Virus record (IMG/VR): IMGVR_UViG_3300045988_055839
Strand: one strand, 5' to 3'
From: a virus
Length of the DNA stretch: 43,220 bases
Positions 1-43,220 of the stretch are shown one piece after another; position 1 is the stretch's first letter, and every line of letters begins with the position of its first letter. A model generated the notes under the pieces. It saw only the letters and a program-made list of their open reading frames with translations, had not been told where the DNA came from and did not search any database. A program made the position numbers and the translations under genes.

Positions 1-136
1 CGAGCCGATCTGCGCGGAGTTACCGGACGAGCCGATCCGCGCGTAGTAACCGGACGAGCCGATCTGCGCGGAGTCACCGGACGAGCCGATCTTCGCGGAG
101 TCACCGGACGAGCCGATCTGCGCGGAGTCACCGGAC
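1..136 (-). repeat. 27-bp tandem repeat (5 units) encoding in-frame nonapeptide repeats SG[DNY][SY]A[QKR]IGS
   Basis: Units at 1-27, 28-54, 55-81, 82-108 and 109-135 differ at only a few positions. The minus-strand frame stays open and continues the ORF that starts at 474. Confidence 0.95.
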
Positions 137-474
137 AGATTCGTTCCATTCGTTTTTTCAAGTGTAAAATCAATGCACGCTTTCAAGAACCCTTTAAGTC
201 CGAGTTTTGCGCCAACGTGAATTTTATTTGTTGCCCGCTTTTCTCCGTCATTCCATACCTGCCCCAATGCTTCCACTTCCGCAAATTCAGAAAAATTTCC
301 GTTGCTATCCACGAGATCGTAATGGTTCAGAACCTCCCACGGGTCCTCGCAGAAATGCATAACGCCTTTATGGCAGCATCCCTCACCGTACTCCTCATAT
401 GTCGTGTTTTCCTCGTACTGTTTCCCTCTGCAGAAAAAATCTTTCTCGAATCCATTAAAACCTTTCATTCCCAT
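1..474 (-). CDS. Nonapeptide-repeat protein, N-terminal part (gene split by the window ends; continues at 43220)
   Basis: ATG at 474 with AAAGGAG about 8 nt upstream. Translates MGMKGFNGFEKDFFCRGKQYEENTTYEEYGEGCCHKGVMHFCEDPWEVLNHYDL...EKTNGTNL, then SGDSAQIGS-type repeats. No stop before position 1. The N-domain resembles a phage/bacterial family I recall as DUF7666 (unverified). Confidence 0.8.
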   Translation of the reverse strand, partial: MGMKGFNGFEKDFFCRGKQYEENTTYEEYGEGCCHKGVMHFCEDPWEVLNHYDLVDSNGNFSEFAEVEALGQVWNDGEKRATNKIHVGAKLGLKGFLKACIDFTLEKTNGTNLSGDSAQIGSSGDSAKIGSSGDSAQIGSSGYYARIGSSGNSAQIGS

Positions 475-549
475 TGCCTTTTCTCCTTTCATGTGCTATG
501 ATGATGTTGTCTTTTTATGGATGCCCTTCGTCTCTCCGGAGGGCATTTT

Positions 550-786
550 TTATATTCTCAACCACATCTGGAACACTCTGTCTTTCTTCTTTTTTGCCTT
601 TTCCGCTTCTGTTCTCTTTCGCTTCTCCTCCGCGTCAACCGCCAGAAAAGCAAGGAATCCAAGAATCATCAGTGAAAAGCACCAGAAGAACCCGCCCCAG
701 TTGATGTCGCTGATGGCCACGAGTGCCGTAACCCACAGAATCACTTCTGCTGCTACAATTTTTTTCTTCAATGCTTCGCCCTCCAT
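550..786 (-). CDS. Small membrane protein (78 aa)
   Basis: Track ORF. Two hydrophobic segments followed by a Lys/Glu-rich tail. GGAG upstream. The start overlaps the end of the upstream ORF 768..1055 (operon coupling). No family recognised. Confidence 0.55.
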   Translation of the reverse strand: MEGEALKKKIVAAEVILWVTALVAISDINWGGFFWCFSLMILGFLAFLAVDAEEKRKRTEAEKAKKKKDRVFQMWLRI

Positions 787-1055
787 TTCTCCAGCTCCAC
801 TGTGTCGAACACAAGCGGGCTGTTTTTCTTCATCGGGTTGATTTTCCTCACAACCCCCGCCGGTGCGTATTTCTCGGCGCGTTCAAGTACCGCTTCGCCC
901 AATAACGGGTTTTTCAGCTTAAGCAGCTCCGATTTCCGCATATACCTCGCCGGATATCGAATCCGGTTTTCTTCTGTTTTCTCTCTGATCCTGACCTCTC
1001 GGCCCAGAAACATAAAGAGCATCTTTTCCGCTTCTGCTTTCGTAATTTCTTCCAT
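768..1055 (-). CDS. Hypothetical early protein (95 aa), possibly an excisionase/MerR-like DNA-binding fold
   Basis: AAGGAGG about 8 nt upstream of ATG 1055. The pattern RYMRKSELLKL...PLVFDTVELEKW resembles HTH_17/excisionase-type domains. The functional call is weak. Confidence 0.55.
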   Translation of the reverse strand: MEEITKAEAEKMLFMFLGREVRIREKTEENRIRYPARYMRKSELLKLKNPLLGEAVLERAEKYAPAGVVRKINPMKKNSPLVFDTVELEKWRAKH

Positions 1056-1068
1056 CCGGGGAACCTCC

Positions 1069-1215
1069 TTACATCACCAACACGGCCGCCACAACCGTTA
1101 TCAGCACCACGAAAGTTACCAGCCAAGCGCCGAACCAGAATTTTGCTTTCTTTCTGGCTTCCCGTATCACCTCAACCGCGAACTCTTCCGCCTGCTCCCA
1201 TGTCGTTTCTTCCAT
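1069..1215 (-). CDS. Small tail-anchored membrane protein (48 aa)
   Basis: Internal Met32 of track ORF 1069..1308, chosen because AAGGAGG lies 5 nt upstream and the longer form would overlap the 1224..1817 gene. Has a C-terminal TM segment (FWFGAWLVTFVVLITVVAAVLV). Confidence 0.5.
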   Translation of the reverse strand: MEETTWEQAEEFAVEVIREARKKAKFWFGAWLVTFVVLITVVAAVLVM

Positions 1216-1223
1216 GTTCCTCC

Positions 1224-1817
1224 TTACTCGATTCGTTCCCACTGGAAGCGGCCTTTCCCTGAGTTGCGCCACTGTCCGATACCTCTGAGTGCGCCGTAAT
1301 CGAACCATTCAGCCACTGCTCCAGCCATCGTGTCAGTTAAGCACTGTACCGTGAACTCAATCCATGCTCCCGCTGGGATGCTCTCACTGTTCGCCAGGGC
1401 TGTTTTTTCTCCCTGTGGTGTCTGTCCCCTGAGCGGTCGCTCACAATTTCCGATTGTTCCCTCAAAATGAATCGGGATCTGACGTTCTTTCACAAAGATC
1501 AGTCCATCAATCTCTTTTTTGTAAGCCTTAATCTTAGAACTTTTTGTTCCTGGTACCTTTCTCAGCATTCCAGCCGCATCCTTGAAGAATCCCTTGATCT
1601 GGTAGTCCCAATAGATCGGCACTCCCTCTTTGTTTCTCGGGAATATGGTCATTCCCTTCTCGATGGCTGCTTCCACGCCGAGCGCTTCGACCTCTTCCTT
1701 CTTGCTCGGCGCGTTCGGTGCCATAGACGCAATATAGGTCTTATGGATCTCCTTATCTGCCGCCGCTGTTCCAAGAATTTCCTCGGTGAATGTTAATCTT
1801 ACTTTCATTTCCTTCAT
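1224..1817 (-). CDS. RAMP-like protein (Cas7/Csm3-like motif pattern), 197 aa
   Basis: Start at Met31 of the track ORF (AAGGAG 7 nt upstream). Motif order: N-terminal beta-strand plus LGT (KVRLTFTEEILGT), IPIYWDYQIKGFFKDAAG (compare IPGSSIKGxxR), SIPAGAWIEFTV, and a C-terminal glycine-rich loop GALRGIGQWRNSGKGRFQW (compare LGGGGTRGNGRIQF of Csm3). The coding call is solid; the family call is by eye only. Confidence 0.6.
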   Translation of the reverse strand: MKEMKVRLTFTEEILGTAAADKEIHKTYIASMAPNAPSKKEEVEALGVEAAIEKGMTIFPRNKEGVPIYWDYQIKGFFKDAAGMLRKVPGTKSSKIKAYKKEIDGLIFVKERQIPIHFEGTIGNCERPLRGQTPQGEKTALANSESIPAGAWIEFTVQCLTDTMAGAVAEWFDYGALRGIGQWRNSGKGRFQWERIE

Positions 1818-2337
1818 GTTGTTTCTCCTTTTCGTTTTGAATTTTGATCCTTTCGTTGCTCCGATACTCTTCTCCACGCCTTCGCGTATCAAATCGCCGC
1901 ACTTCATTTCTTTGCTCAGAAATTCCTTTCTGTGCTATTCCATTCCCTTGCCGAGCTGCTCGACGCTCTTCCGTTGCTCATCTTGGCTTACACTGCTATT
2001 CCTTTGCTCCGACCTGCGATTCCTTTCCGTAGCATTCCGGTTCGTTGGCTCGCTGTACCATGCCCTCGCTAAGCTCTACTGTTCGGAGCCATTCCATGGC
2101 TTTTCGTTGCCCAGTTTTTCGTAGATCCTCCTTCGCTTTTCAGCTCATGACGGTGCATCGCTATTCCATAACCCTTCTACTCAACGTTTTTCCTTGCCAT
2201 CGCTGATCATGCCCGCGCGTTGCTGCTCCTTTGCAACTCTATGCTCGTCTATTCTTTGCCTTTCCCTCGCAATTCCTTTGCATTTCAATCCGGCGTATTT
2301 CTTCGCTCCGCTTTTCCCTAGCGATTCAATGTCGTGC

Positions 2338-3090
2338 TTAGCCCCGCTCTTCCATCGCTGTGATAACTTTGTTGATGAAATATTTCTGTCCTTTCCCCGT
2401 CACTTTCGGGGTGCGGCTGATCCGAACATTTCCGTTCGGCTGGGTTATGGTTGACTCCTTGATCTCCATTACGCCGAGATCCATGCTCTTCTGAGTCGGC
2501 ATGTTGTAGCTGGCTCCGTCCTTCCGGATCAGATAACCGTTTTCCCGCATCCACTGGAAGAGCCGCTTCTCGCCGATGTCAACCCCATTCTGCTTAATCA
2601 ACTTTGCAAGGTCGCCGATCAAGATTGACGTTTTGCTTGCGCTCACCGCATCCGCGAAAATCTCTTTCGGTCGCATCCGTTCGATCGTCCGGTTCTGCTC
2701 CTCAATGGTTTTCTGCGCTTCGAGGACTGCCAGAGCCAGAAGTTCCTTTCCCTGCGGTGCTGTCTGCTGATACCCGCCGGTTTTCCGGATCGCTGGGAGA
2801 ACCTCCGACGTTATCCAGTGCTTGAATCTCTTTGCTTCTTCCATCTTGCTCGAGAGAATCAAGCTATACAGCCCGGATTCGTTAATCAGCGTCACTTCCC
2901 GCCGCTGACCTGCCAGAACGATTTGTTCGGTCAGCTTGTCCTCAGCGTCTACGTGATCTCGAATTGCTTTCTGCTGGTTTTGGTATTTCAGCACCTTAGC
3001 GATACTGGAGCCAACAAACCACGGTTCTCCGTTTCGCATCTCGATTCGAATGCTCCCGAACTCTGCATTCGTGATAATCATTTCGTTCAT
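2338..3090 (-). CDS. Phage antirepressor (Bro-N domain plus KilAC/ANT C-terminal domain), 250 aa
   Basis: N-terminus FGSIRIEMRNGEPWFVGSSIAKVLKY...INESGLYSLILSSKMEEAKRFKHWITSEVLPAIRKTG is a typical Bro-N domain. The C-terminal half (ILIGDLAKLIKQNGVDIGEKRLFQWMRENGYL) is a typical KilAC domain. Confidence 0.9.
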   Translation of the reverse strand: MNEMIITNAEFGSIRIEMRNGEPWFVGSSIAKVLKYQNQQKAIRDHVDAEDKLTEQIVLAGQRREVTLINESGLYSLILSSKMEEAKRFKHWITSEVLPAIRKTGGYQQTAPQGKELLALAVLEAQKTIEEQNRTIERMRPKEIFADAVSASKTSILIGDLAKLIKQNGVDIGEKRLFQWMRENGYLIRKDGASYNMPTQKSMDLGVMEIKESTITQPNGNVRISRTPKVTGKGQKYFINKVITAMEERG

Positions 3091-3232
3091 GCTTCCACCT
3101 TCTTTCTGTGGTCAAGAAAAGCTATTTTGCGTACCGAGCACCGCTTGCGATGCTCAATATATGTTTTTATATCTTTTTCTTATTCTTATTCTTATTCTAG
3201 GGGCGTTACTGTGACGCTACACCTCTGTTAGC

Positions 3233-3253
3233 GTAACGTTATGATAACGTTAC
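3233..3253. promoter_or_regulatory. Perfect 10-bp-arm palindrome GTAACGTTAT-g-ATAACGTTAC upstream of the antirepressor gene (putative operator)
   Basis: Read directly from the sequence. Additional GCGTTAC/GCGTAAC half-site-like copies lie at about 3203-3240. Sits in an AT-rich 400-bp intergenic region between divergent genes. Confidence 0.45.
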
Positions 3254-3493
3254 TAAGCAAATTGCAATGTTCCTAGTTGCATTTTGCTGTGCATTAAAAT
3301 GGTAAAAAATGCACGATTTTTTCTAAAAGCCAGCATAAATTTCTTAATAGTTTTTCTCCGTTAAAGAAAACATTTATTAAAATCGAAATCACGCTGAGGA
3401 TAATTGCTAATGTCGAATTTTCCAATTTTTTGCTATTTTCCATCGCTTCTCCCTCTTTTTTGTGGTATACTCCGCTTGAAAGGAGGTGCGAAA

Positions 3494-3673
3494 ATGGATT
3501 TTCATATTCCTAACCTTGCAAACGGAACATTCGTTCCTATGGAAGTTCAGCTAAGAGAAGCCAAGGAAAGAGAACTTCGCAAAAAGCAGCGTCGTCATGA
3601 TTTTCTTGTAACTCTCTTTAGCGTGGTCGCAAGCGTAATCGCCGGATTGATTACCGACCTTCTTGTTCATTAA
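3494..3673 (+). CDS. Small tail-anchored membrane protein (59 aa)
   Basis: ATG 3494 preceded by AAAGGAGGTG. Basic middle (RELRKKQRRH) and a C-terminal TM segment (FLVTLFSVVASVIAGLITDLLV). Confidence 0.55.
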   Translation: MDFHIPNLANGTFVPMEVQLREAKERELRKKQRRHDFLVTLFSVVASVIAGLITDLLVH

Positions 3674-3769
3674 TTATCTGAAAAGCCAATGAGCAAGAAA
3701 ACAACCAAATGCTCCGCAGGTTATAGAAAGTGCACTGCAAAGAATCCAAAACGCAACTCTATTTCTCAT
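3674..3769 (-). CDS. Small hydrophobic peptide (31 aa), convergent with 3494..3673
   Basis: ATG 3769 with AAGGAGG 6 nt upstream. Translates MRNRVAFWILCSALSITCGAFGCFLAHWLFR. Below the 60-aa track cutoff. Its stop codon directly abuts the stop of the plus-strand gene. Confidence 0.4.
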   Translation of the reverse strand: MRNRVAFWILCSALSITCGAFGCFLAHWLFR

Positions 3770-3841
3770 GGCTGACCTCCTTTCCTGTCTTTGGAGAGGA
3801 CGTTGGCCATTTTAAATTTTTCCGCATATCCACCTCCTGTT

Positions 3842-3988
3842 TCAGAATCCGTCCATGATCGCTAACGCGGTCAACGCTGCCGCCGACCAATATAGAATCT
3901 TTGGCTCTGTTCTCTTCTCCTTAATTCCGTTCATCGCCGCGAAAAGAAATAAGAATATGTTCAGAGCCAAGATAAACGTTTTCTTCAT
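3842..3988 (-). CDS. Small two-TM membrane protein (48 aa)
   Basis: Met42 of track ORF 3842..4111, preceded by AAGGAG. Translates MKKTFILALNIFLFLFAAMNGIKEKRTEPKILYWSAAALTALAIMDGF. Confidence 0.5.
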   Translation of the reverse strand: MKKTFILALNIFLFLFAAMNGIKEKRTEPKILYWSAAALTALAIMDGF

Positions 3989-3998
3989 GGCTTTCTCC

Positions 3999-4148
3999 TT
4001 ATGTTTTCTGTAACCGGGCTTTGTCCGCTTCTTCTCTATCGCGAAGTGCCGAAAGATAGATGATGACCATGTTCTTACTGTCTTCTGGCAGTGACATGAA
4101 AATATCTGCAAATTTCTTGCAATCTTCTTTATCTTTTTCTGCTACCAT
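3999..4148 (-). CDS. First leftward (lytic-direction) gene, 49-aa acidic protein
   Basis: ATG 4148 preceded by AAAGGAGGTGAGTAC. Translates MVAEKDKEDCKKFADIFMSLPEDSKNMVIIYLSALRDREEADKARLQKT. Lies immediately downstream of the consensus leftward promoter. Confidence 0.5.
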   Translation of the reverse strand: MVAEKDKEDCKKFADIFMSLPEDSKNMVIIYLSALRDREEADKARLQKT

Positions 4149-4162
4149 GTACTCACCTCCTT

Positions 4163-4232
4163 TGTACTTTGTACATTCTCAATATAGCACCATGTACATA
4201 CTTTGTCAACATGTTTTTTCGTACTTTGTACG
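4163..4232. promoter_or_regulatory. Three operator-like boxes of the genetic switch (GTACTTTGTAC twice exactly, plus GTACATACTTTGTCAAC)
   Basis: tGTACTTTGTACa at 4163-4175, cGTACTTTGTACg at 4220-4232, and a related box at 4191-4213 overlapping the -35/spacer of the leftward promoter. Confidence 0.6.
4181..4209 (-). promoter_or_regulatory. Leftward promoter (TTGACA-17 nt-TGcTATATT)
   Basis: On the minus strand: TTGACA, a 17-nt spacer ending in TG, then TATATT. About 30 nt upstream of the RBS of the 49-aa gene. Confidence 0.65.
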
Positions 4233-4242
4233 ATTTTTTCTA

Positions 4243-4271
4243 TTGATATTTTGCTCATTCTGGTGTAAACT
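4243..4271 (+). promoter_or_regulatory. Rightward promoter (TTGATA-17 nt-TAAACT) for the Xre-type gene
   Basis: TTGATA at 4243-4248 and TAAACT at 4266-4271, followed by AGGAGG and ATG 4293. Confidence 0.55.
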
Positions 4272-4292
4272 ATCATTAGACAGGAGGTGAAA

Positions 4293-4646
4293 ATGTTGCA
4301 TGAAAGATTGAAAATGCTGCGTAAAGCCTTAAACATAGGTAGCCAGCAAAAATTCGCAAACGATCTTGGGATATCGTTTTCGAACGTCTCAAGTTATGAG
4401 ATGGGAAGGCGAACCCCTTCTGATGCCGTCATTAAATTAATTTGTGAGAAATATAATGTGCGGGAAGAATGGCTCCGAGATGGAGAAGGTGAAATGTTTC
4501 GTGATGTTGATGTAGACTTCGGAACTATATGTGCTGAAATCGGAATTGAAGACTTGAAAGCCAAAGAAGCAATTATGAAATATTATCATCTGTCAAAAGA
4601 AGACAAGGAACTTTTTTGGAAGTTCATGGATCGTTTTTCGAAATAA
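4293..4646 (+). CDS. Xre-family HTH transcriptional regulator (117 aa)
   Basis: LKMLRKALNIGSQQKFANDLGISFSNVSSYEMGRRTPS is a canonical HTH_3 motif. ATG 4293 lies 5 nt after AGGAGG (the track begins at GTG 4287). Confidence 0.85.
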   Translation: MLHERLKMLRKALNIGSQQKFANDLGISFSNVSSYEMGRRTPSDAVIKLICEKYNVREEWLRDGEGEMFRDVDVDFGTICAEIGIEDLKAKEAIMKYYHLSKEDKELFWKFMDRFSK

Positions 4647-4681
4647 AAGAAGCAGGGGTCAGTTCCCCTGCTTCTTATTTT
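4647..4681. terminator. Rho-independent terminator (12-bp stem AAGAAGCAGGGG/CCCCTGCTTCTT), bidirectional context
   Basis: Perfect hairpin directly after the TAA of the Xre gene, followed by ATTTT. The convergent 45-aa ORF ends inside it. Confidence 0.8.
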
Positions 4682-4796
4682 CCGCGTATAATCTTTTTAC
4701 AAAGCCATAAATCATATCAATGTACGCTGGATTGTAAATTTCGTCTACCATCCGTTTTATTTCTTTCTTTTTGTCTTCCGGTTGTTCATCTCTCAT
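4659..4796 (-). CDS. Small hypothetical protein (45 aa)
   Basis: ATG 4796 with GGGAGG about 10 nt upstream. Translates MRDEQPEDKKKEIKRMVDEIYNPAYIDMIYGFVKRLYAENKKQGN. Below the track cutoff. Confidence 0.35.
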   Translation of the reverse strand: MRDEQPEDKKKEIKRMVDEIYNPAYIDMIYGFVKRLYAENKKQGN

Positions 4797-4942
4797 GATT
4801 ATGTACCTCCCTGACAGTGCCAATCAAAATAGTGATACCACGATTATAGAACATTTGTTCGATAATGTCAACCGTGCGCCACGTATCTGCCTATTTCGAT
4901 ATACAGAATCTCTAATTTTTCAACTTTTTTCTCCCCCCTTAT

Positions 4943-4969
4943 TGACAGTTTTTAAAAATATGATAAAAT
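4943..4969 (+). promoter_or_regulatory. Promoter for the CI-like repressor operon (TTGACA ... TGaTAAAAT extended -10)
   Basis: TTGACA at 4943-4948 and TGATAAAAT at 4961-4969. The spacer is short (about 15 nt) but the extended -10 is present. Confidence 0.5.
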
Positions 4970-5097
4970 TTTCTGTATAACATCTTTATACTTATATTAC
5001 ACCGGATACCGCACAAGATGTTGACGTAATTTCATGTGTGCTTGCTCTTTTGCTTGATAATTTTCGTCAGAATCTTGATACAAAGGGGGAATTTAAG

Positions 5098-5832
5098 GTG
5101 ACTACAAAGAAAGAGATGTTAGACACGTTTGCGGAAAATCTGGAAAAAGAGCGCATAAAGCTCGGGTATACTCAATGTGATTTCGCGAAAAAGCTGGGGA
5201 TTTCGGCATCTTCTTACCGGAACATCATTTCCCGCCGCGTGGACACGTTCAGTATCATGCTTGCGCCGAAACTCTATGAGCTGACAGGAAGATTCTTATA
5301 CGAGATGTTCGGGCAACGCAGTATCGAGATTGAAGTGCTGAACAAATTCCGCAAATTAACAGATCGGCAGAAAGCCTACATAACCGCCAAAATAGAATTC
5401 GAGCTTGAGATGAAAGCCAAAGAAGAAGATCCTGCGAACATGTTGGATGTCCTGCTTCTGACAGGAAACATGGAAGATGGGATGGTTCTGGATTCCGCAC
5501 ATGAAGAGCATGTGTATTGCCCGGAATATATCAAGAAATACGGAGAGCGGCTGCACTGTGGCATCCGGATAACATCGAACCACTTACATCCCGTATATAT
5601 CAAGGGTGATATCATCGGAATCTCGAAGCGGCCGCCCAGGGACGGTGATACATGCGTCCTGGTCAATAAAAAGAACGGGCGGGCGTACATCCGTAAATTT
5701 ATCCAGTCGGAACCGTGCAGAATGGAGCCGATAAACGGGTATGGGGAGGTCATAACCATAGATCACAACAACCCGGACGAGATGAGGGAATGGGTTATAT
5801 TTGGCGTGGTTATCACGGTTCTGCGCAGATAG
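5098..5832 (+). CDS. CI/LexA-like repressor: N-terminal Xre HTH plus C-terminal S24 peptidase domain
   Basis: HTH: [29 protein letters not shown]-terminal S24 pattern: [18 protein letters not shown]...[19 protein letters not shown], with Ser and Lys retained at the expected positions. GTG 5098 follows AAGGGGGA by 7 nt; ATG 5116 is an alternative start (the track starts at 5038). Confidence 0.8.
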
Positions 5833-5843
5833 GGGGAATCAAT

Positions 5844-34266: not shown

Positions 34267-34887
34267 CTAGGTTCCCTCCTTCTTGTATCTCTCCTGGAAC
34301 GCTGCGACCTTTTCCACGTCCCCTTCCAGTTCTTCCGGAACTTTCCCGAAGAAGATCACATGCTCCGGTGATAATCGTTTCATCATTTCTTCATATCCCC
34401 GCAGGAATGCCGACTTTTTCGCCTTGCTGTTCTGCGTTCCCACACTGGATACTGCCACCACGCTTCCCACCGGCTCGCCATCAAAGCACCACTCGAACGA
34501 GCTTTCATCGCTCCATGCGATCGTAGGTATTACACGCAGTCCATTCATCTGCATATATGCCGCGCACCAGTGTTTTCTGTAATGGTTATAAATCTGCATG
34601 GCTTTTGGAAAGTCTGTGTACATGCTGAAATCCGGTGAAAGCACGTAGTCATAGTCTCTCAGTACCTCAATATACCTGTCCGGGTTGTTCCATACCCGTT
34701 CGAACTGGTAGTCATCCAGGAAGAAATGAACGCCTTTCCCGGCTCTTTTCGCTGTGCTGGCCGCGTAGTTGAATCCGATCCACTCGCACGGCTCGTACTC
34801 TTTCGGCATAATCTCGGGAATCCCGTACTCTCCCACGCCGGAGAAGATCATTTTCTCGAGATTGTCGTAAGTCTTGTTTGTAGGCAT
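34267..34887 (-). CDS. DUF4417-family protein (206 aa)
   Basis: GVHFFLDDYQFERVWNNPDRY...VLSPDFSMYTDFP...IPTIAWSD matches my recollection of DUF4417. ATG 34887 lies 6 nt after GGGGGTGA. Confidence 0.75.
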   Translation of the reverse strand: MPTNKTYDNLEKMIFSGVGEYGIPEIMPKEYEPCEWIGFNYAASTAKRAGKGVHFFLDDYQFERVWNNPDRYIEVLRDYDYVLSPDFSMYTDFPKAMQIYNHYRKHWCAAYMQMNGLRVIPTIAWSDESSFEWCFDGEPVGSVVAVSSVGTQNSKAKKSAFLRGYEEMMKRLSPEHVIFFGKVPEELEGDVEKVAAFQERYKKEGT

Positions 34888-34895
34888 AAAAATCA

Positions 34896-34940
34896 CCCCC
34901 ATACTAATACACTTCTATTCTTAGTGTACTGGTATGGGGG
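34896..34940 (-). terminator. Long hairpin (CCCCCATAC...GTATGGGGG) whose 3' arm contains the DUF4417 RBS; terminator or translational control element
   Basis: Minus strand: CCCCCATACCAGTACACTaagaatagAAGTGTATTAGTATGGGGG followed by TGATTTTT-ATG. The GGGGGTGA Shine-Dalgarno sequence lies within and next to the stem. Confidence 0.5.
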
Positions 34941-36423: not shown

Positions 36424-36518
36424 TTTGATTTTTTCTCTCCTTCTTCATCCAAGTTCATGCTTTCTAAGTCTTCAATTAGCTTGCTATATTTACTTAATGT
36501 CTGATCTTCTTTTACCAT
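36420..36518 (-). CDS. Small acidic ORF (32 aa), coupled at both ends
   Basis: Its ATG overlaps the ImmA stop (AGATGGTAA) and its TGA overlaps the next ATG (ATGA). Translates MVKEDQTLSKYSKLIEDLESMNLDEEGEKKSK. Confidence 0.35.
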   Translation of the reverse strand: MVKEDQTLSKYSKLIEDLESMNLDEEGEKKSK

Positions 36519-37096
36519 CTTAAATACCCCAAAAATTTTCCTCGATTAGATGCAACTTCTACCGACACATTAAAATACTCTGCAATCTTGGAAGTATCTA
36601 CTACGTTACCGTCCGCAATCCTTTTAAGAACTGTAAGATATTCCGATGCTGGCATTAAAAAAGCTGCTGCAAACTCATTTGCTTGATATTCTTTTTCGGA
36701 GCTTCCTATTCGATGATAAATGTTATTCTCTTGTCTTGCCCATAACTCTTTATTAGTTCTATATCCCATATGAAGAAAGAGATGTCCTAATTCATGCGCA
36801 ATTGTAAATCTTTCTCTTTTTTCGTCTTGATATGGGGATACAATAATCCTAAATCCATCCCCTTCCTTTTCAACTGCGCCATCTGAAAATGAAGTTTCTT
36901 TTTGGATAGTACCACCTAATATTTCAACAATATCACCAATATTCTGAATCGGAACAGAAATGTCATATACATTTAGTATATCTTCTGCTAATGAATTAAT
37001 CATTACTTTAGTTGGCTTTAATACATCATATCTATTCTCTCCCTCATACGGCTCATACAGTGCGCCACATCTGTCACATTTGTATGCTCTACTCAT
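36512..37096 (-). CDS. ImmA/IrrE-family metallopeptidase (DUF955), 194 aa, with a chimeric zinc-ribbon-like N-terminus
   Basis: HELGH (HExxH) followed by ...EKEYQANEFAAAFLMP, typical of ImmA/IrrE. The first ~25 aa (MSRAYKCDRCGALYEPYEGENRY) are encoded in higher-GC DNA; the rest is AT-rich. Confidence 0.8.
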   Translation of the reverse strand: MSRAYKCDRCGALYEPYEGENRYDVLKPTKVMINSLAEDILNVYDISVPIQNIGDIVEILGGTIQKETSFSDGAVEKEGDGFRIIVSPYQDEKRERFTIAHELGHLFLHMGYRTNKELWARQENNIYHRIGSSEKEYQANEFAAAFLMPASEYLTVLKRIADGNVVDTSKIAEYFNVSVEVASNRGKFLGYLRW

Positions 37097-42818: not shown

Positions 42819-43220
42819 TCCTGTACCTCCACAAATTCTCCATTTTTCAGCGTGTAATAAGTGTTCTCTTTGATTTTTTCGCCGTCTACACGCTCTGTTT
42901 TTACGCAGATCGGCACATAGCGTCCTTTTTCTTCATCTTTCACCCATTCCGTAAGCGTGATCCAACTCCCCTTTTTTCCTTTTGCTTTTGATCTGCTGCC
43001 TGCGCACATAATCACAGCGTCTTCTCCGGTGCTGTTGATCTTCGCGTAGTCACCGGACGAGCCGATCTTCGCGGAGTTACCGGACGAGCCGATCTTCGCG
43101 GAGTCACCGGACGAGCCGATCTGCGCGGAGTTACCGGACGAGCCGATCCGCGCGTAGTAACCGGACGAGCCGATCTTCGCGTAGTAACCGGACGAGCCGA
43201 TCTGCGCGGAGTTACCGGAC
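42815..43220 (-). CDS. Nonapeptide-repeat protein, C-terminal part (continuation of the gene that starts at 474)
   Basis: The frame containing track ORF 42815..43015 stays open upstream to 43220. It reads SGNSAQIGS SGYYAKIGS SGYYARIGS SGNSAQIGS SGDSAKIGS SGNSAKIGS SGDYAKINS TGEDAVIMCAGSRSKAKGKKGSWITLTEWVKDEEKGRYVPICVKTERVDGEK.... Confidence 0.8.
   Translation of the reverse strand, partial: SGNSAQIGSSGYYAKIGSSGYYARIGSSGNSAQIGSSGDSAKIGSSGNSAKIGSSGDYAKINSTGEDAVIMCAGSRSKAKGKKGSWITLTEWVKDEEKGRYVPICVKTERVDGEKIKENTYYTLKNGEFVEVQE
43031..43220 (-). repeat. 27-bp tandem repeat (7 units), same family as 1-136
   Basis: Units at 43031, 43058, 43085, 43112, 43139, 43166 and 43193. The last 28 nt are identical to window positions 1-28, and 43112-43165 is identical to 1-54. 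Confidence 0.95.

Follow-up and report, generated by a model that had tools for sequence, protein, structure and literature searches.

A phage gene with a predicted Cas7-like RAMP fold is paired with a pentanucleotide-periodic array

A solo gene on the minus strand of a 43,220-nucleotide gut phage sequence (the window) encodes a 197-residue protein whose family profile and structural model indicate a RAMP/Cas7-like fold, diverged from known Cas7, and beside it lies an array in which a G recurs every fifth nucleotide. Across related loci the pairing of gene and array is near-obligate and strand-specific, and the phased G of the array is under purifying selection. Gene and array together probably form an undescribed RNA-protein module and not a stray cas gene. 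In its fuller form, the proposal is that a diverged, stand-alone Cas7-type RAMP works with the adjacent array as a two-part phage module that coats its own transcript early in infection; we hold the chances of this being right or wrong to be about equal. A search of the literature on solo, orphan and viral Cas7, on prophage RAMPs and on pentanucleotide periodicity turned up no description of such a module.

The RAMP gene, its fold and its family

The gene occupies positions 1224 to 1817 on the minus strand (translation MKEMKVRLTF...FQWERIE), where its open reading frame is supported by homologues, public gene calls, a profile match, an AlphaFold model and Foldseek comparisons. A ribosome-binding site read off the sequence, AAGGAG (1825 to 1830, minus strand), has the ATG at 1817 seven bases downstream. 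Homologue lengths concentrate at 195-199 residues and the public gene calls give 197, leaving a longer, 227-residue start (to 1907) unsupported; the longer reading is also disfavoured because its added codons overlap the periodic array.

The AlphaFold model of the 197-residue protein (pLDDT 90.6, pTM 0.84) contains the ferredoxin/RRM-like beta-alpha-beta-beta-alpha-beta core of the RAMP superfamily. Foldseek comparison of this model with the PDB returned 123 matches at E <= 1e-3, and the best 50 of these 123 are without exception RAMP proteins, each at probability 1.00 and led by type VII Cas7 and Csm3 (leading matches 8z4j_J, 9g9f_E, 9j9e_D1, 9ash_F and 6s6b_I). The best structural matches have E values of about 1e-6 and TM-scores of about 0.57; query-normalised TM-scores among the best 50 of the 123 are mostly 0.4-0.58, and sequence identity to the matches is 8-15%. 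TM-scores of 0.4-0.6 show that the model is similar to these structures at the level of the fold, not closely. A Cas6 structure (3zfv_C) also occurs among the matches. The structures nearest to the model are Cas7, Csm3 and Cmr4, not Cas5 or Cas6, and together with a thumb-like hairpin they would place the protein in the Cas7 group.

Sequence comparisons point the same way when the whole family is used as the query. The family profile matches type VII Cas7 (E 6e-6) and Csm4 (E 2.9e-4) among PDB sequences, in both cases on the C-terminal glycine-rich loop, and a viral protein in BFVD with 59% identity is labelled 'Cas system-associated RAMP superfamily protein'. Single-sequence scans of the window protein against Pfam, PHROGs, NCBIfam and PADLOC matched nothing, and a single-sequence PDB search gave a chance match only. 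Among 79 family members, one reached PF03787 (RAMPs) at E 0.055 and two reached the Cas6 model PF10040 at E 0.17 or weaker, so that neither the window protein against the curated RAMP/Cas models nor the 79 members against PF03787 gave a match above threshold. As judged by sequence, the protein is outside recognisable Csm3 and any curated Cas family. A preliminary description of this DNA had proposed a stand-alone Cas7/Csm3-like RAMP, to be checked by profile searches and by an AlphaFold model with structural comparison. The RAMP assignment is borne out by the profile match and by the model. The likeness to Cas7/Csm3 holds for the fold and the glycine-rich loop but does not extend to membership recognisable in Csm3 or curated Cas families, and the profile searches succeed with the family profile against Cas7 and Csm4 in the PDB while coming back empty from Pfam, NCBIfam and PADLOC.

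Closer examination of residue conservation, in an alignment of 79 sequences (A1), reveals that the ordered RAMP motifs listed in the preliminary description are all present and coincide with conserved positions. This conservation far exceeds chance; the protein has matches in more than 7,897 clusters (90% identity). L15 and G16, which follow strand 1, are conserved, as are R127, L129 and R130 in 'ERPLRG', S144, E145 and G150 in 'SESIPAG', and Y174, G175, G179, Q182, W183, R184, N185, G189 and F191 in 'YGALRGIGQWRNSGKGRF'. The segment PIYWDYQIKGFFKD (residues 67-80; 1578 to 1619, minus strand) stands at the RAMP '..KG..R' position at the start of helix alpha-1, placed by A1 and by the model, in which the helix runs from residue 71 to 85. 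Its G76 and K79 are invariant and its P67 and Y72 near-invariant; its sequence alignment to Cas7 (profile domain 1) is weak and by itself not significant. The glycine-rich loop GIGQWRNSGKGRF, a RAMP hallmark (residues 179-191; 1245 to 1283, minus strand), is defined by conservation and by profile alignment. G179 and G189 are invariant in it, conservation is 90% or higher at Q182, W183, R184, N185 and F191, and the family profile aligns it to 'GIGGWLNKGYGRV' of type VII Cas7 and 'GIGGKRNSGYGKF' of Csm4.

Between these elements lies a long beta-hairpin (residues 123-147; 1377 to 1451, minus strand), with modelled strands at 123-133 and 136-147 and conserved residues R127, L129, R130, G136, R138, S144 and E145. 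Its topology suggests that it may be the counterpart of the Cas7 thumb. In the insertion between strand 1 and helix 1, E42 is the sole near-invariant acidic residue, and D21 varies across A1. The segment around E42 is modelled at low confidence.

The family is very large. Its clusters at 50% identity have 1,723 representatives, and the identical protein is found on 105 public contigs. A genome-collection scan, with an alignment of 18 sequences as the query, was used to find relatives; among the related contigs that were sampled, the labels name several Clostridia families as well as Coriobacteriia. A plasmid collection held no homologue of the protein, and in a phage GenBank collection the matches were confined to four unannotated metagenomic records. 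The usual annotation of the protein is 'hypothetical protein'.

Two family members, P0197 and P0200, are natural RAMP-RAMP tandem fusions. The model of P0200 (pTM 0.81, its N-terminal half covered by two sequences only) matches Cas7-11/gRAMP and a fused type III-D Cas7 chain over approximately 500 aligned columns (E 3e-13), with TMq of 0.42-0.45 for these multi-Cas7 matches versus approximately 0.30 for single-domain matches. The model sets two RAMP domains side by side, as successive Cas7 domains are, and because the fusions model like Cas7-11 we count them as support for side-by-side packing.

No CRISPR-like array occurs within the window, and a scan of 20 ORFs from the neighbourhood and the early region yielded no cas family; within these bounds, the earlier statement that the genome lacks both further cas genes and a CRISPR array stands. 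Across 132 non-redundant loci, no third conserved partner gene emerged from neighbourhood statistics computed on same-strand ORFs with the arrays excluded. In the co-occurrence analysis suggested at the outset, the periodic array accompanies the gene and no other gene is conserved with it. Neighbours at related loci include Cro-like HTH, SSB, DUF1351, Erf and similar proteins, and the module sits after the Cro/antirepressor genes and ahead of the recombination and replication genes. Related phages also encode a DnaD-like replisome organiser.

The periodic array and its pairing with the gene

The array extends from 1845 to 2358 on the minus strand, overlapping the Ant gene by its final 21 nt and stopping 28 nt short of the RAMP start, and comprises approximately 100 units of the form G-(C/A)-a-N-N as delimited by autocorrelation and HMM segmentation. 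Fourteen of its units, roughly every sixth, are hexamers with a terminal extra G. Against a baseline of approximately 0.24, its autocorrelation is 0.39 for a lag of 5 and 0.45 for a lag of 36; the array is the highest-scoring 5-nt periodic region of the entire window and, by HMM segmentation of both strands, the only long array. Tandem Repeats Finder detected no repeat in it, the units being too degenerate. The 430-bp ORF-free region placed directly upstream of the gene by the preliminary description is correct, and four sister contigs have a gene-free gap of 500-540 nt at this position.

Other readings of the region were considered and rejected. A hidden coding sequence is incompatible with a 5-nt period and with the stops found in all three frames, and no ORF of at least 40 residues lies on the minus strand inside the array. 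A structured RNA is contradicted by a folding energy like that of shuffled sequence (z -0.36). Rfam 15 gave nothing relevant at E <= 1 in window positions 1-5000 and four strong-array loci, where the sub-threshold matches were at E 0.088 (window) and 0.72 (L086). A scan of positions 500-3400 found no sigma-70-like promoter, and the stretch between the upstream genes and the array is without a promoter-like site. The array strand is purine-rich in composition. We presume that 1845-2358 serves as a 5' leader RNA and as the binding platform of the RAMP protein.

The periodicity shows in autocorrelation peaks at lags 5, 10/11, 15/16, 21, 26, 31 and 36. Around anchor motifs each fifth position is a G with a frequency of 0.78-0.92, and repeat spacings of 21, 26, 31, 36 and 41 nt follow the rule 5n+1. 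Comparison of homologous arrays gave a mismatch rate of 2.1% for the phased G and of 7-13% for the remaining phases, so that the phased G evolves 3-6 times slower than the remaining array positions. The extra G of the hexamers, with 1.6% mismatch, is as conserved as the phased G, and indels between homologous arrays peak at 5, 10, 26 and 31 nt.

The pairing with the gene was established from both sides. Array motifs reach a density of approximately 1.7 per 200 nt right before the start codon or right after the stop codon, compared with 0.05-0.1 elsewhere, and the enrichment is restricted to the strand of the gene. Of 149 related loci, 147 exceed the threshold of a G-periodicity score that makes no use of the motif, and in 143 of these the best window adjoins the gene. 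By HMM segmentation, 75 loci have a downstream array only, 59 have an upstream array only, 12 have one on each side and one has none; the median array has 428 nt and 83 units. The G-strand is the coding strand of the gene for upstream and downstream arrays alike. Searching with the fusion protein P0200 retrieved 13 distant relatives, 31-39% identical to it, and every one of them has an adjacent array, of up to 1.5 kb. Reciprocally, all 19 contigs found by searching with the array motif alone encode a family protein, at most 1 kb away on the same strand in 18 and elsewhere on the contig in one. The locus L166 was considered as an array without protein, its two flanking ORFs being unrelated to the family, yet a relative is encoded elsewhere on its contig. 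Strand specificity could also be explained by single-stranded DNA or by purine loading of transcribed regions.

A terminator lies between array and gene in one of 60 upstream-array loci. Terminators follow downstream arrays in 6 of 73 loci, compared with 23 of 447 controls (5%), which is no enrichment; a discrete RNA product thus has no independent sign in these data. A discrete RNA with its own terminator, as the clear terminator that follows the array of locus L086 might suggest, is not supported by the counts across loci.

Proposed mechanism and alternative explanations

In the mechanism that we propose, the array would be transcribed together with the gene as part of an early lytic operon, forming a 5' leader in the window phage and a 3' trailer in about half of the relatives. 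The resulting RNA would be unstructured and purine-rich, with a G at each fifth base and an extra G about every sixth unit. RAMP protomers would line up on this RNA as Cas7 subunits do on crRNA, each reading one phased G and covering about 5 nt instead of 6, and would give rise either to a ribonucleoprotein filament of some length or to several particles of 5n+1 nt; about 100 protomer sites would be available on the window array. The particle would most likely target a host factor at an early stage of infection; a decoy directed at class 1 CRISPR subunits, or at another RNA-binding defence, is one example. We infer that the array acts as RNA and that filaments form. Binding at one protomer per unit is suggested by co-location and, by analogy, by the behaviour of the fold in other systems, and an anti-defence role is suggested by the position of the gene, a slot that in other temperate phages holds host-takeover and anti-defence genes. 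To our knowledge, every known Cas7 backbone binds 6 nt per subunit, and a 5-nt register would be unprecedented for the fold.

A bolder version, to which we give somewhat less than an even chance, posits a CRISPR-independent system in gut phages in which a Cas7-derived protein polymerises on a scaffold RNA into filaments of tens to hundreds of subunits and serves as an early decoy. Under this filament reading, the G at every five nucleotides would be the only conserved feature of the scaffold RNA, in a register unlike that of any Cas complex, and an example of its role would be a giant decoy against RNA-guided or RNA-binding host defences. The suggestion, made in the preliminary description, of a new RNA-guided module survives in part: an RNA-linked module has strong support from the cognate periodic array, but guidance in the CRISPR sense is unlikely because the array is low-complexity, periodic and without spacers. 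For the decoy or anti-CRISPR role also listed there, the data speak neither for nor against.

Alternatively, the protein might act without the array, as an anti-CRISPR decoy in which a viral RAMP replaces genuine Cas7 or Cas5, slots into or caps a host type I, III or VII backbone and poisons the complex, the array being a mere regulatory leader or trailer of the mRNA. The viral Cas5 and Cas8 homologues AcrIB3 and AcrIB4 reportedly poison complexes as decoys. The Cas7-like fold, the place of the gene in the early operon beside an antirepressor and the documentation of orphan viral cas genes as anti-CRISPRs (bioRxiv 10.1101/2023.06.24.545427) are all in keeping with such a decoy. We nevertheless think it unlikely, given that 40-300 phased sites kept by purifying selection over 200-1,500 nt are more than a simple regulatory element needs, that several Clostridia families plus Coriobacteriia and more than 1,700 clusters (50% identity) fit poorly with narrow subtype specificity, and that curated Cas models are blind to this protein whereas known viral Cas decoys stay recognisably host-like. 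Similarly improbable is a Cas6-like or toxIN-like sequence-specific endoribonuclease that cuts the array at GCAAAG|G hexamers and retains the 5n+1-nt small RNAs as guides, antitoxins or sponges. The spacings of 21, 26, 31, 36 and 41 nt do suggest discrete units, the extra G of the hexamers (1.6% mismatch) is conserved like the phased G, E42 offers a near-invariant acidic residue in the strand 1-helix 1 insertion, and Cas6 figures both in the fold match 3zfv_C and in the Pfam model weakly reached by two members. The closest folds, however, are backbone Cas7 and Csm3, not Cas6; the array lacks Cas6-type hairpins, its units are degenerate and of variable length where type III toxin-antitoxin RNAs repeat exactly in tandem, and no catalytic residue can be aligned. 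Processing also overlaps in part with the coating that we favour, and the two could coexist.

The array might instead function as double- or single-stranded DNA, namely as origin iterons, an R-loop priming site or a partition-like site, bound by the RAMP-fold protein. We find this doubtful to the same degree, even though the layout resembles that of iteron replicons, where sites flank the initiator gene, arrays occur on either or both sides of the gene, and the module comes just before recombination and replication genes. AT-hook-like tails, KKRGR(P/K)K, which are better known from DNA binding, occur in about 10 of 150 cluster representatives; no dedicated terminator marks off an RNA product, and a purine-rich non-template strand would favour R-loops. 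Against these points, a 5-bp repeat would turn successive sites to opposite faces of the duplex, a double-stranded site does not need its G-strand always to be the coding strand of the gene, and the phages already have a DnaD-like replisome organiser, usually with its own origin. We also know of no RAMP-fold protein that binds double-stranded DNA sequence-specifically. Finally, convergence or chance could have given a RAMP likeness to a small alpha/beta protein of unrelated function, as the silence of the curated family models and the 8-15% identity to the structural matches would allow. This we regard as highly improbable, since the sequence profile and the predicted structure, two independent methods, agree, the best 50 structural matches are all RAMPs, the sequence match sits on the diagnostic glycine-rich loop, and the fused form resembles multi-Cas7 proteins.

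Relation to known systems and significance

Among known proteins, type VII Cas7 (8yhd, 8z4j, 9j9e) and Csm3/Cmr4 have the same size as the phage protein, about 200 residues, and share its predicted RAMP/RRM-like core, long beta-hairpin and C-terminal glycine-rich loop; type VII Cas7 provides the best profile match (E 6e-6), and the best structural matches come from this group as a whole. Unlike the type VII and type III proteins, the phage protein is encoded in a phage early operon and has neither a Cas5, Cas10, Cas11, Cas14 or Cas6 partner nor a CRISPR array, so that the neighbouring cas genes and the repeat-spacer array characteristic of CRISPR-Cas are both missing. Its array repeats every 5 nt (5n+1) instead of the 6 nt of their backbones, and the catalytic Asp of Csm3/Cmr4 could not be placed on the phage protein by alignment. 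The likeness to Cas7-11/gRAMP (type III-E) and to fused type III-D Cas7 lies in the fusions P0197 and P0200. These have two domains only, lack the Cas11 insertion, the crRNA-processing domain and the TPR-CHAT partner of Cas7-11/gRAMP, and contrast with the single domain of the window protein.

Cas7-like subunits outside canonical CRISPR immunity are also found in type IV-B Csf and in haloarchaeal HRAMP. The type IV-B backbone is described as assembling on non-CRISPR RNA (bioRxiv 10.1101/2020.07.31.231399), and HRAMP comprises Cas5 and Cas7 homologues without an array (PMC8730458). Both have several Cas-like subunits, are cellular or plasmid-borne and lack a dedicated periodic RNA, whereas the phage module consists of a single protein with its own array. 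AcrIB3, AcrIB4 and AcrVIA2 resemble the phage gene as lone cas-derived phage genes with a plausible counter-defence logic; they are clearly host-Cas-like and act without a cognate RNA, in contrast to the very diverged, very large and array-paired phage RAMP family.

Outside CRISPR biology, TRAP and viral helical nucleoproteins offer a parallel by analogy only, in a short conserved element that recurs every 5-6 nt and is read each time by one subunit of an oligomer. TRAP in Bacillus binds an RNA with 11 G/UAG triplets spaced 2-3 nt apart to regulate attenuation, and viral helical nucleoproteins cover a fixed number of nucleotides per subunit. The folds are unrelated, the phage protein being RAMP-like, and TRAP has 11 repeats compared with 40-300 in the phage arrays. 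In type III toxin-antitoxin systems (toxIN, cptIN) a protein gene adjoins a repetitive non-coding RNA array that the protein is thought to bind. A ToxI-type array is a small number of exact tandem repeats of 34-36 nt that precede the toxin gene, from which a terminator separates them, whereas the phage units are degenerate pentamers on either side of the gene, with a terminator between in 1 of 60 loci; ToxN, moreover, is not a RAMP.

RAMP and Cas7 proteins are known almost only within multi-subunit CRISPR effectors, and the family described here is a very large phage branch without Cas partners. Its newly described partner is a non-coding array of considerable length whose 5-nt G periodicity is under selection, and an array with a G at every fifth position beside a gene of approximately 200 codons whose product ends in QWRNSGxGRF provides a rule for searching metagenomes. 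If the protein coats the transcript, a Cas7 backbone would have been re-tuned to a sequence-phased RNA that is not a guide, and if the bolder filament reading is true, the module would add a new class to the phage ribonucleoproteins and represent a branch of the RAMP lineage that has gone unrecognised. The gene-array pair may also find use as a compact polymer of protein and RNA. In the Clostridia phages that abound in the gut, the module would likely serve counter-defence or host takeover, and it offers a testable case for how mobile elements exapt CRISPR components.

Fold, family and genome setting of a solo RAMP gene

The RAMP gene lies at window positions 1224-1817 on the minus strand and, by ORF call and translation, comprises 197 codons; the ribosome-binding site AAGGAG is read seven bases upstream of its ATG. 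A longer, 227-codon reading was rejected because homologue lengths concentrate at 195-199 aa and public gene calls, made independently in four sister contigs, give 197 aa. The exact protein is found on 105 public contigs; matches number more than 7,897 among clusters at 90% identity and 1,723, at E <= 1e-3, among representatives of 50%-identity clusters; the few named members of its own cluster all carry the label ‘hypothetical protein’. Sampled related contigs from bacterial assemblies carry source labels that are mainly gut and rumen Clostridia (Oscillospiraceae, Lachnospiraceae, Ruminococcaceae), with some Coriobacteriia, and the plasmid collection searched for homologues yielded no match. 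In a 79-sequence family alignment G76, K79, R127, S144, G179 and G189 are invariant, and L15, G16, E42, T57, F59, P67, Y72, L129, R130, G136, R138, E145, G150, Y174, G175, Q182, W183, R184, N185 and F191 are at least 90% conserved. The RAMP-type motifs listed in the preliminary description are all present and coincide with conserved columns of this alignment.

Single-sequence searches of Pfam, PHROGs, NCBIfam, PADLOC and the PDB gave no match. Against PDB sequences, the family profile detects a 200-aa type VII CRISPR Cas7 (E 6e-6) and Csm4 (E 2.9e-4), and both alignments span the C-terminal loop, where GIGQWRNSGKGRF of the family is paired with GIGGWLNKGYGRV of the type VII Cas7 and GIGGKRNSGYGKF of Csm4. 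An AlphaFold2 model built on the alignment (pLDDT 90.6, pTM 0.84) is uncertain only in a helical insertion at residues 21-55. Foldseek comparison of this model with the PDB returns 123 matches at E <= 1e-3, and the best 50 are all RAMPs (E ~1e-6 to 1e-4, probability 1.00, query-normalised TM-score mostly 0.4-0.58), namely type VII Cas7 (8z4j_J, 8yhd_B, 9j9e_D1), Csm3 (9g9f_E, 9ash_F, 6xn3_F) and Cmr4 (6s6b_I), with Csm4, Csm5 and one Cas6 ranked after them. Searching a viral structure library gave as best match a protein of 59% identity whose label reads ‘Cas system-associated RAMP superfamily protein’; one automatic annotation had therefore already made the same fold call. Since profile and structure searches return RAMPs and no confident match to another family, the predicted RAMP fold stands, and a chance resemblance is highly improbable.

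The designation ‘Cas7/Csm3-like RAMP’ thus holds for the fold and fails for membership of a specific Cas family. None of the curated Cas models recognises the protein, PF03787 is touched by only one of the 79 aligned members (E 0.055), and by these tests the protein belongs to no curated Cas family and to no CRISPR-Cas system. The 21-55 insertion (codons ~1653-1757), between strand 1 and helix 1, holds the nearly invariant E42 and could be a partner contact, an RNA contact or a Csm3-like catalytic loop.

The window is a temperate phage genome with joining ends. The same 27-nt tandem repeat occurs at both ends (1-136 and 43037-43220) and the first 28 nt equal the last 28 nt, so that the contig represents a closed or permuted genome. 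The integrase, CI-like repressor and HTH protein genes occupy the plus strand. The early lytic operon, on the minus strand, runs from small ORFs through the Bro-N/KilAC antirepressor (Ant, 2338-3090), ~500 nt without a gene, the RAMP gene, three small ORFs and a DUF7666 repeat protein (from ~495 across the junction to ~42818) to DUF1351, Erf, HNHc_6, a RusA/PDDEXK_15 resolvase and a DnaD-like replisome organiser. This order bears out the original placement of the gene in the early region, directly downstream of an ORF-free stretch. As far as the scan reached, its solo status holds as well: 20 ORFs from the neighbourhood and the early region include no cas gene, and the window contains no CRISPR array. 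The co-occurrence analysis that had been suggested, run on 132 non-redundant related loci, revealed no conserved third gene travelling with the RAMP gene; the commonest neighbour is a Cro-like HTH gene ~1.1 kb upstream (61 loci), and SSB (28) and DUF1351 (14) are also common.

Within the DUF7666 ORF (minus strand) the end repeat encodes ~12 copies of the 9-aa unit SG(D/N/Y)(S/Y)A(Q/K/R)IGS; the protein measures 251, 260 or 287 aa in sister contigs, so the copy number of the unit varies between phages. Genes for an IrrE/Peptidase_M78-domain protein (36512-37096, minus strand) and a DUF4417 protein (34267-34902, minus strand), unconnected with the RAMP finding, lie between the replication and late genes.

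A pentanucleotide-periodic array flanking the gene

Across 160 related loci, the 7-mers GCAAAGG, GGAATAG, GCATAGC and GGCATAG are enriched 6-8-fold within 450 nt upstream of the gene, on the gene's strand only. Their density per 200 nt per locus is ~1.6-1.7 immediately 5' of the start codon, 1.3-1.7 in the first 400 nt past the stop codon and 0.05-0.1 away from the gene flanks, the array lying on one flank or the other depending on the locus. Autocorrelation of the array region reveals a strong 5-nt period (lag 5, 0.42; lag 10, 0.38; lags 26 and 31, 0.41; baseline 0.22-0.23), and GCAANGG motifs are spaced by 21, 26, 31, 36 and 41 nt, that is, 5n+1. The unit was read from profiles anchored on GCAAAGG, in which G recurs at a frequency of 78-92% every five positions in either direction from the anchor, position 2 is C or A, position 3 is mostly A, the last two are nearly free, and a phase slip of one base coincides exactly with the anchor's GG. 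These profiles define the unit as G-(C/A)-a-N-N, and roughly one unit in six gains an extra G; hexamers account for 16% of units, and their extra base is G.

No region of the 43 kb scores higher for periodicity than the window's own array (minus strand, 1845-2358), whose autocorrelation is 0.39 at lag 5 and reaches 0.45 at lag 36. HMM segmentation assigns it 100 units, 14 of them hexamers, and finds no other long array on either strand. Unit positions 1-2 favour GA (GGAAUAGC) in this array and in those of the related loci L001, L002, L029, L094 and L109, and GC (GGCAUAGC) in most relatives; the share of C at position 2 varies between loci, from 0.30 to 0.86.

Scored for G periodicity without reference to motifs, 147 of 149 loci pass the threshold set by controls; the exceptions are L015, whose sequence ends just upstream of the gene, and L060. 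The best-scoring window directly flanks the RAMP gene in 143. Counting arrays of at least 100 nt, HMM segmentation assigns 75 loci to a downstream-only layout, 59 to an upstream-only one and 12 to both sides; one locus lacks an array, and in two the called array overlaps the gene call (median size 428 nt, 83 units). A both-strand scan of 0.9 Mb of flanking sequence picked up only about six arrays away from the gene. A second array lies 1.5-5.4 kb from the gene in L129 (13389-14062), L137 (6457-6661), L149 (3165-3464) and L109 (9829-9976). Distant relatives, 31-39% identical to the query P0200 (a fusion protein), have an adjoining array in 13 of 13 cases, and in two 73-kb phages the gene is flanked on either side by arrays reaching 1.0-1.5 kb (L186, blocks 2168-3682 and 4639-5678; L187, blocks 222-670, 2554-3933 and 4763-5838). 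More than 3 kb of G-every-5 array surrounds the ~32-33%-identical relative in these phages, by far the largest seen. In the reciprocal search, the array pattern GCAAAGGCATAGCN{8,38}GCAAAGGCA retrieved 19 IMG/VR contigs; 18 have a RAMP gene on the same strand within 1 kb, and the nineteenth encodes a relative elsewhere on the contig.

Among 197 homologous array pairs (75-96% identity), the phased G mismatches in 2.1% of cases and the extra G in 1.6%, against 7.2%, 9.7%, 9.7% and 13.0% for the remaining four phases; indel lengths peak at 5, 10, 26 and 31 nt. The pairs are not independent of one another, but this pattern matches the expectation under purifying selection on the G register.

Substrate and assembly

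The G-rich strand of the array is always the coding strand of the gene, for upstream and downstream arrays alike. The array lies within the early operon, no promoter-like site was found for it, and no terminator separates upstream array from gene in 59 of 60 loci. Purines predominate in the array (A 0.32, G 0.33, C 0.19, T 0.16), no stable fold was found (z -0.36), and an Rfam search gave no match. To our knowledge, every characterised RAMP fold binds RNA. Two observations speak against RNA or are neutral: terminators are not enriched 3' of downstream arrays, and AT-hook-like KKRGR(P/K)K tails end ~10 of 150 cluster representatives (P0122, P0124, P0140, P0142, P0169, P0207, P0210, P0220, P0267). 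On balance RNA is more likely than DNA to be the substrate, and we regard a DNA-level element as unlikely. The AT-hook-like motifs terminate extensions of 50-160 aa, mostly C-terminal but N-terminal in P0220 and P0139, which hint at extra nucleic-acid contacts, with DNA or RNA.

Head-to-tail fusions of two RAMP domain copies occur naturally in two cluster representatives, P0197 (458 aa) and P0200 (432 aa). The AlphaFold model of P0200 (pLDDT 82, pTM 0.81, its N-terminal half backed by only two aligned sequences) finds its best PDB matches in the multi-Cas7 single-chain effectors Cas7-11/gRAMP and a fused type III-D chain (~490-570 columns, E 3e-13, TMq 0.42-0.45); single Cas7 subunits cover only half of the model, at TMq ~0.30. 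Because the match to multi-Cas7 chains extends over both domains, the model predicts that neighbouring domains pack like successive Cas7 units. Type III crRNAs form 6-nt length ladders set by the number of Cas7 subunits; the unit lengths of the array recall these ladders but follow a different register, 5n+1.

A proposed Cas-derived ribonucleoprotein

We propose that this diverged protein, probably derived from Cas7, works in a Cas7-like way. It would bind its own co-transcribed array with one protomer per phased G, ~5 nt per protomer, and from the first minutes of lytic growth this would yield either a long RNP or a collection of 5n+1-nt particles. We give a low probability to an anti-CRISPR decoy that acts as protein only. 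A Cas6-like or toxIN-like processing module, for which one Cas6 appears among the structural matches, ranked after Cas7, Csm3 and Cmr4, is comparably doubtful.

For the proposed array-bound protein, the nearest precedents are type IV-B backbones, which sit on non-CRISPR RNA (10.1101/2020.07.31.231399), HRAMP (PMC8730458) and orphan viral cas genes that serve as anti-CRISPRs (10.1101/2023.06.24.545427). All three differ from it in having no dedicated periodic array and no 5-nt register and in not being single-protein modules. No description of a RAMP-array module was found in open-access papers and bioRxiv; one may exist elsewhere. Lambdoid phages keep host-takeover and anti-defence genes between Cro/Ant and the recombination genes. 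The RAMP module occupies this slot, and a decoy or sponge role is thus our leading guess, held with low confidence. Read as a Cas-derived RNP, the module has a substantial chance of being worth calling a new class.
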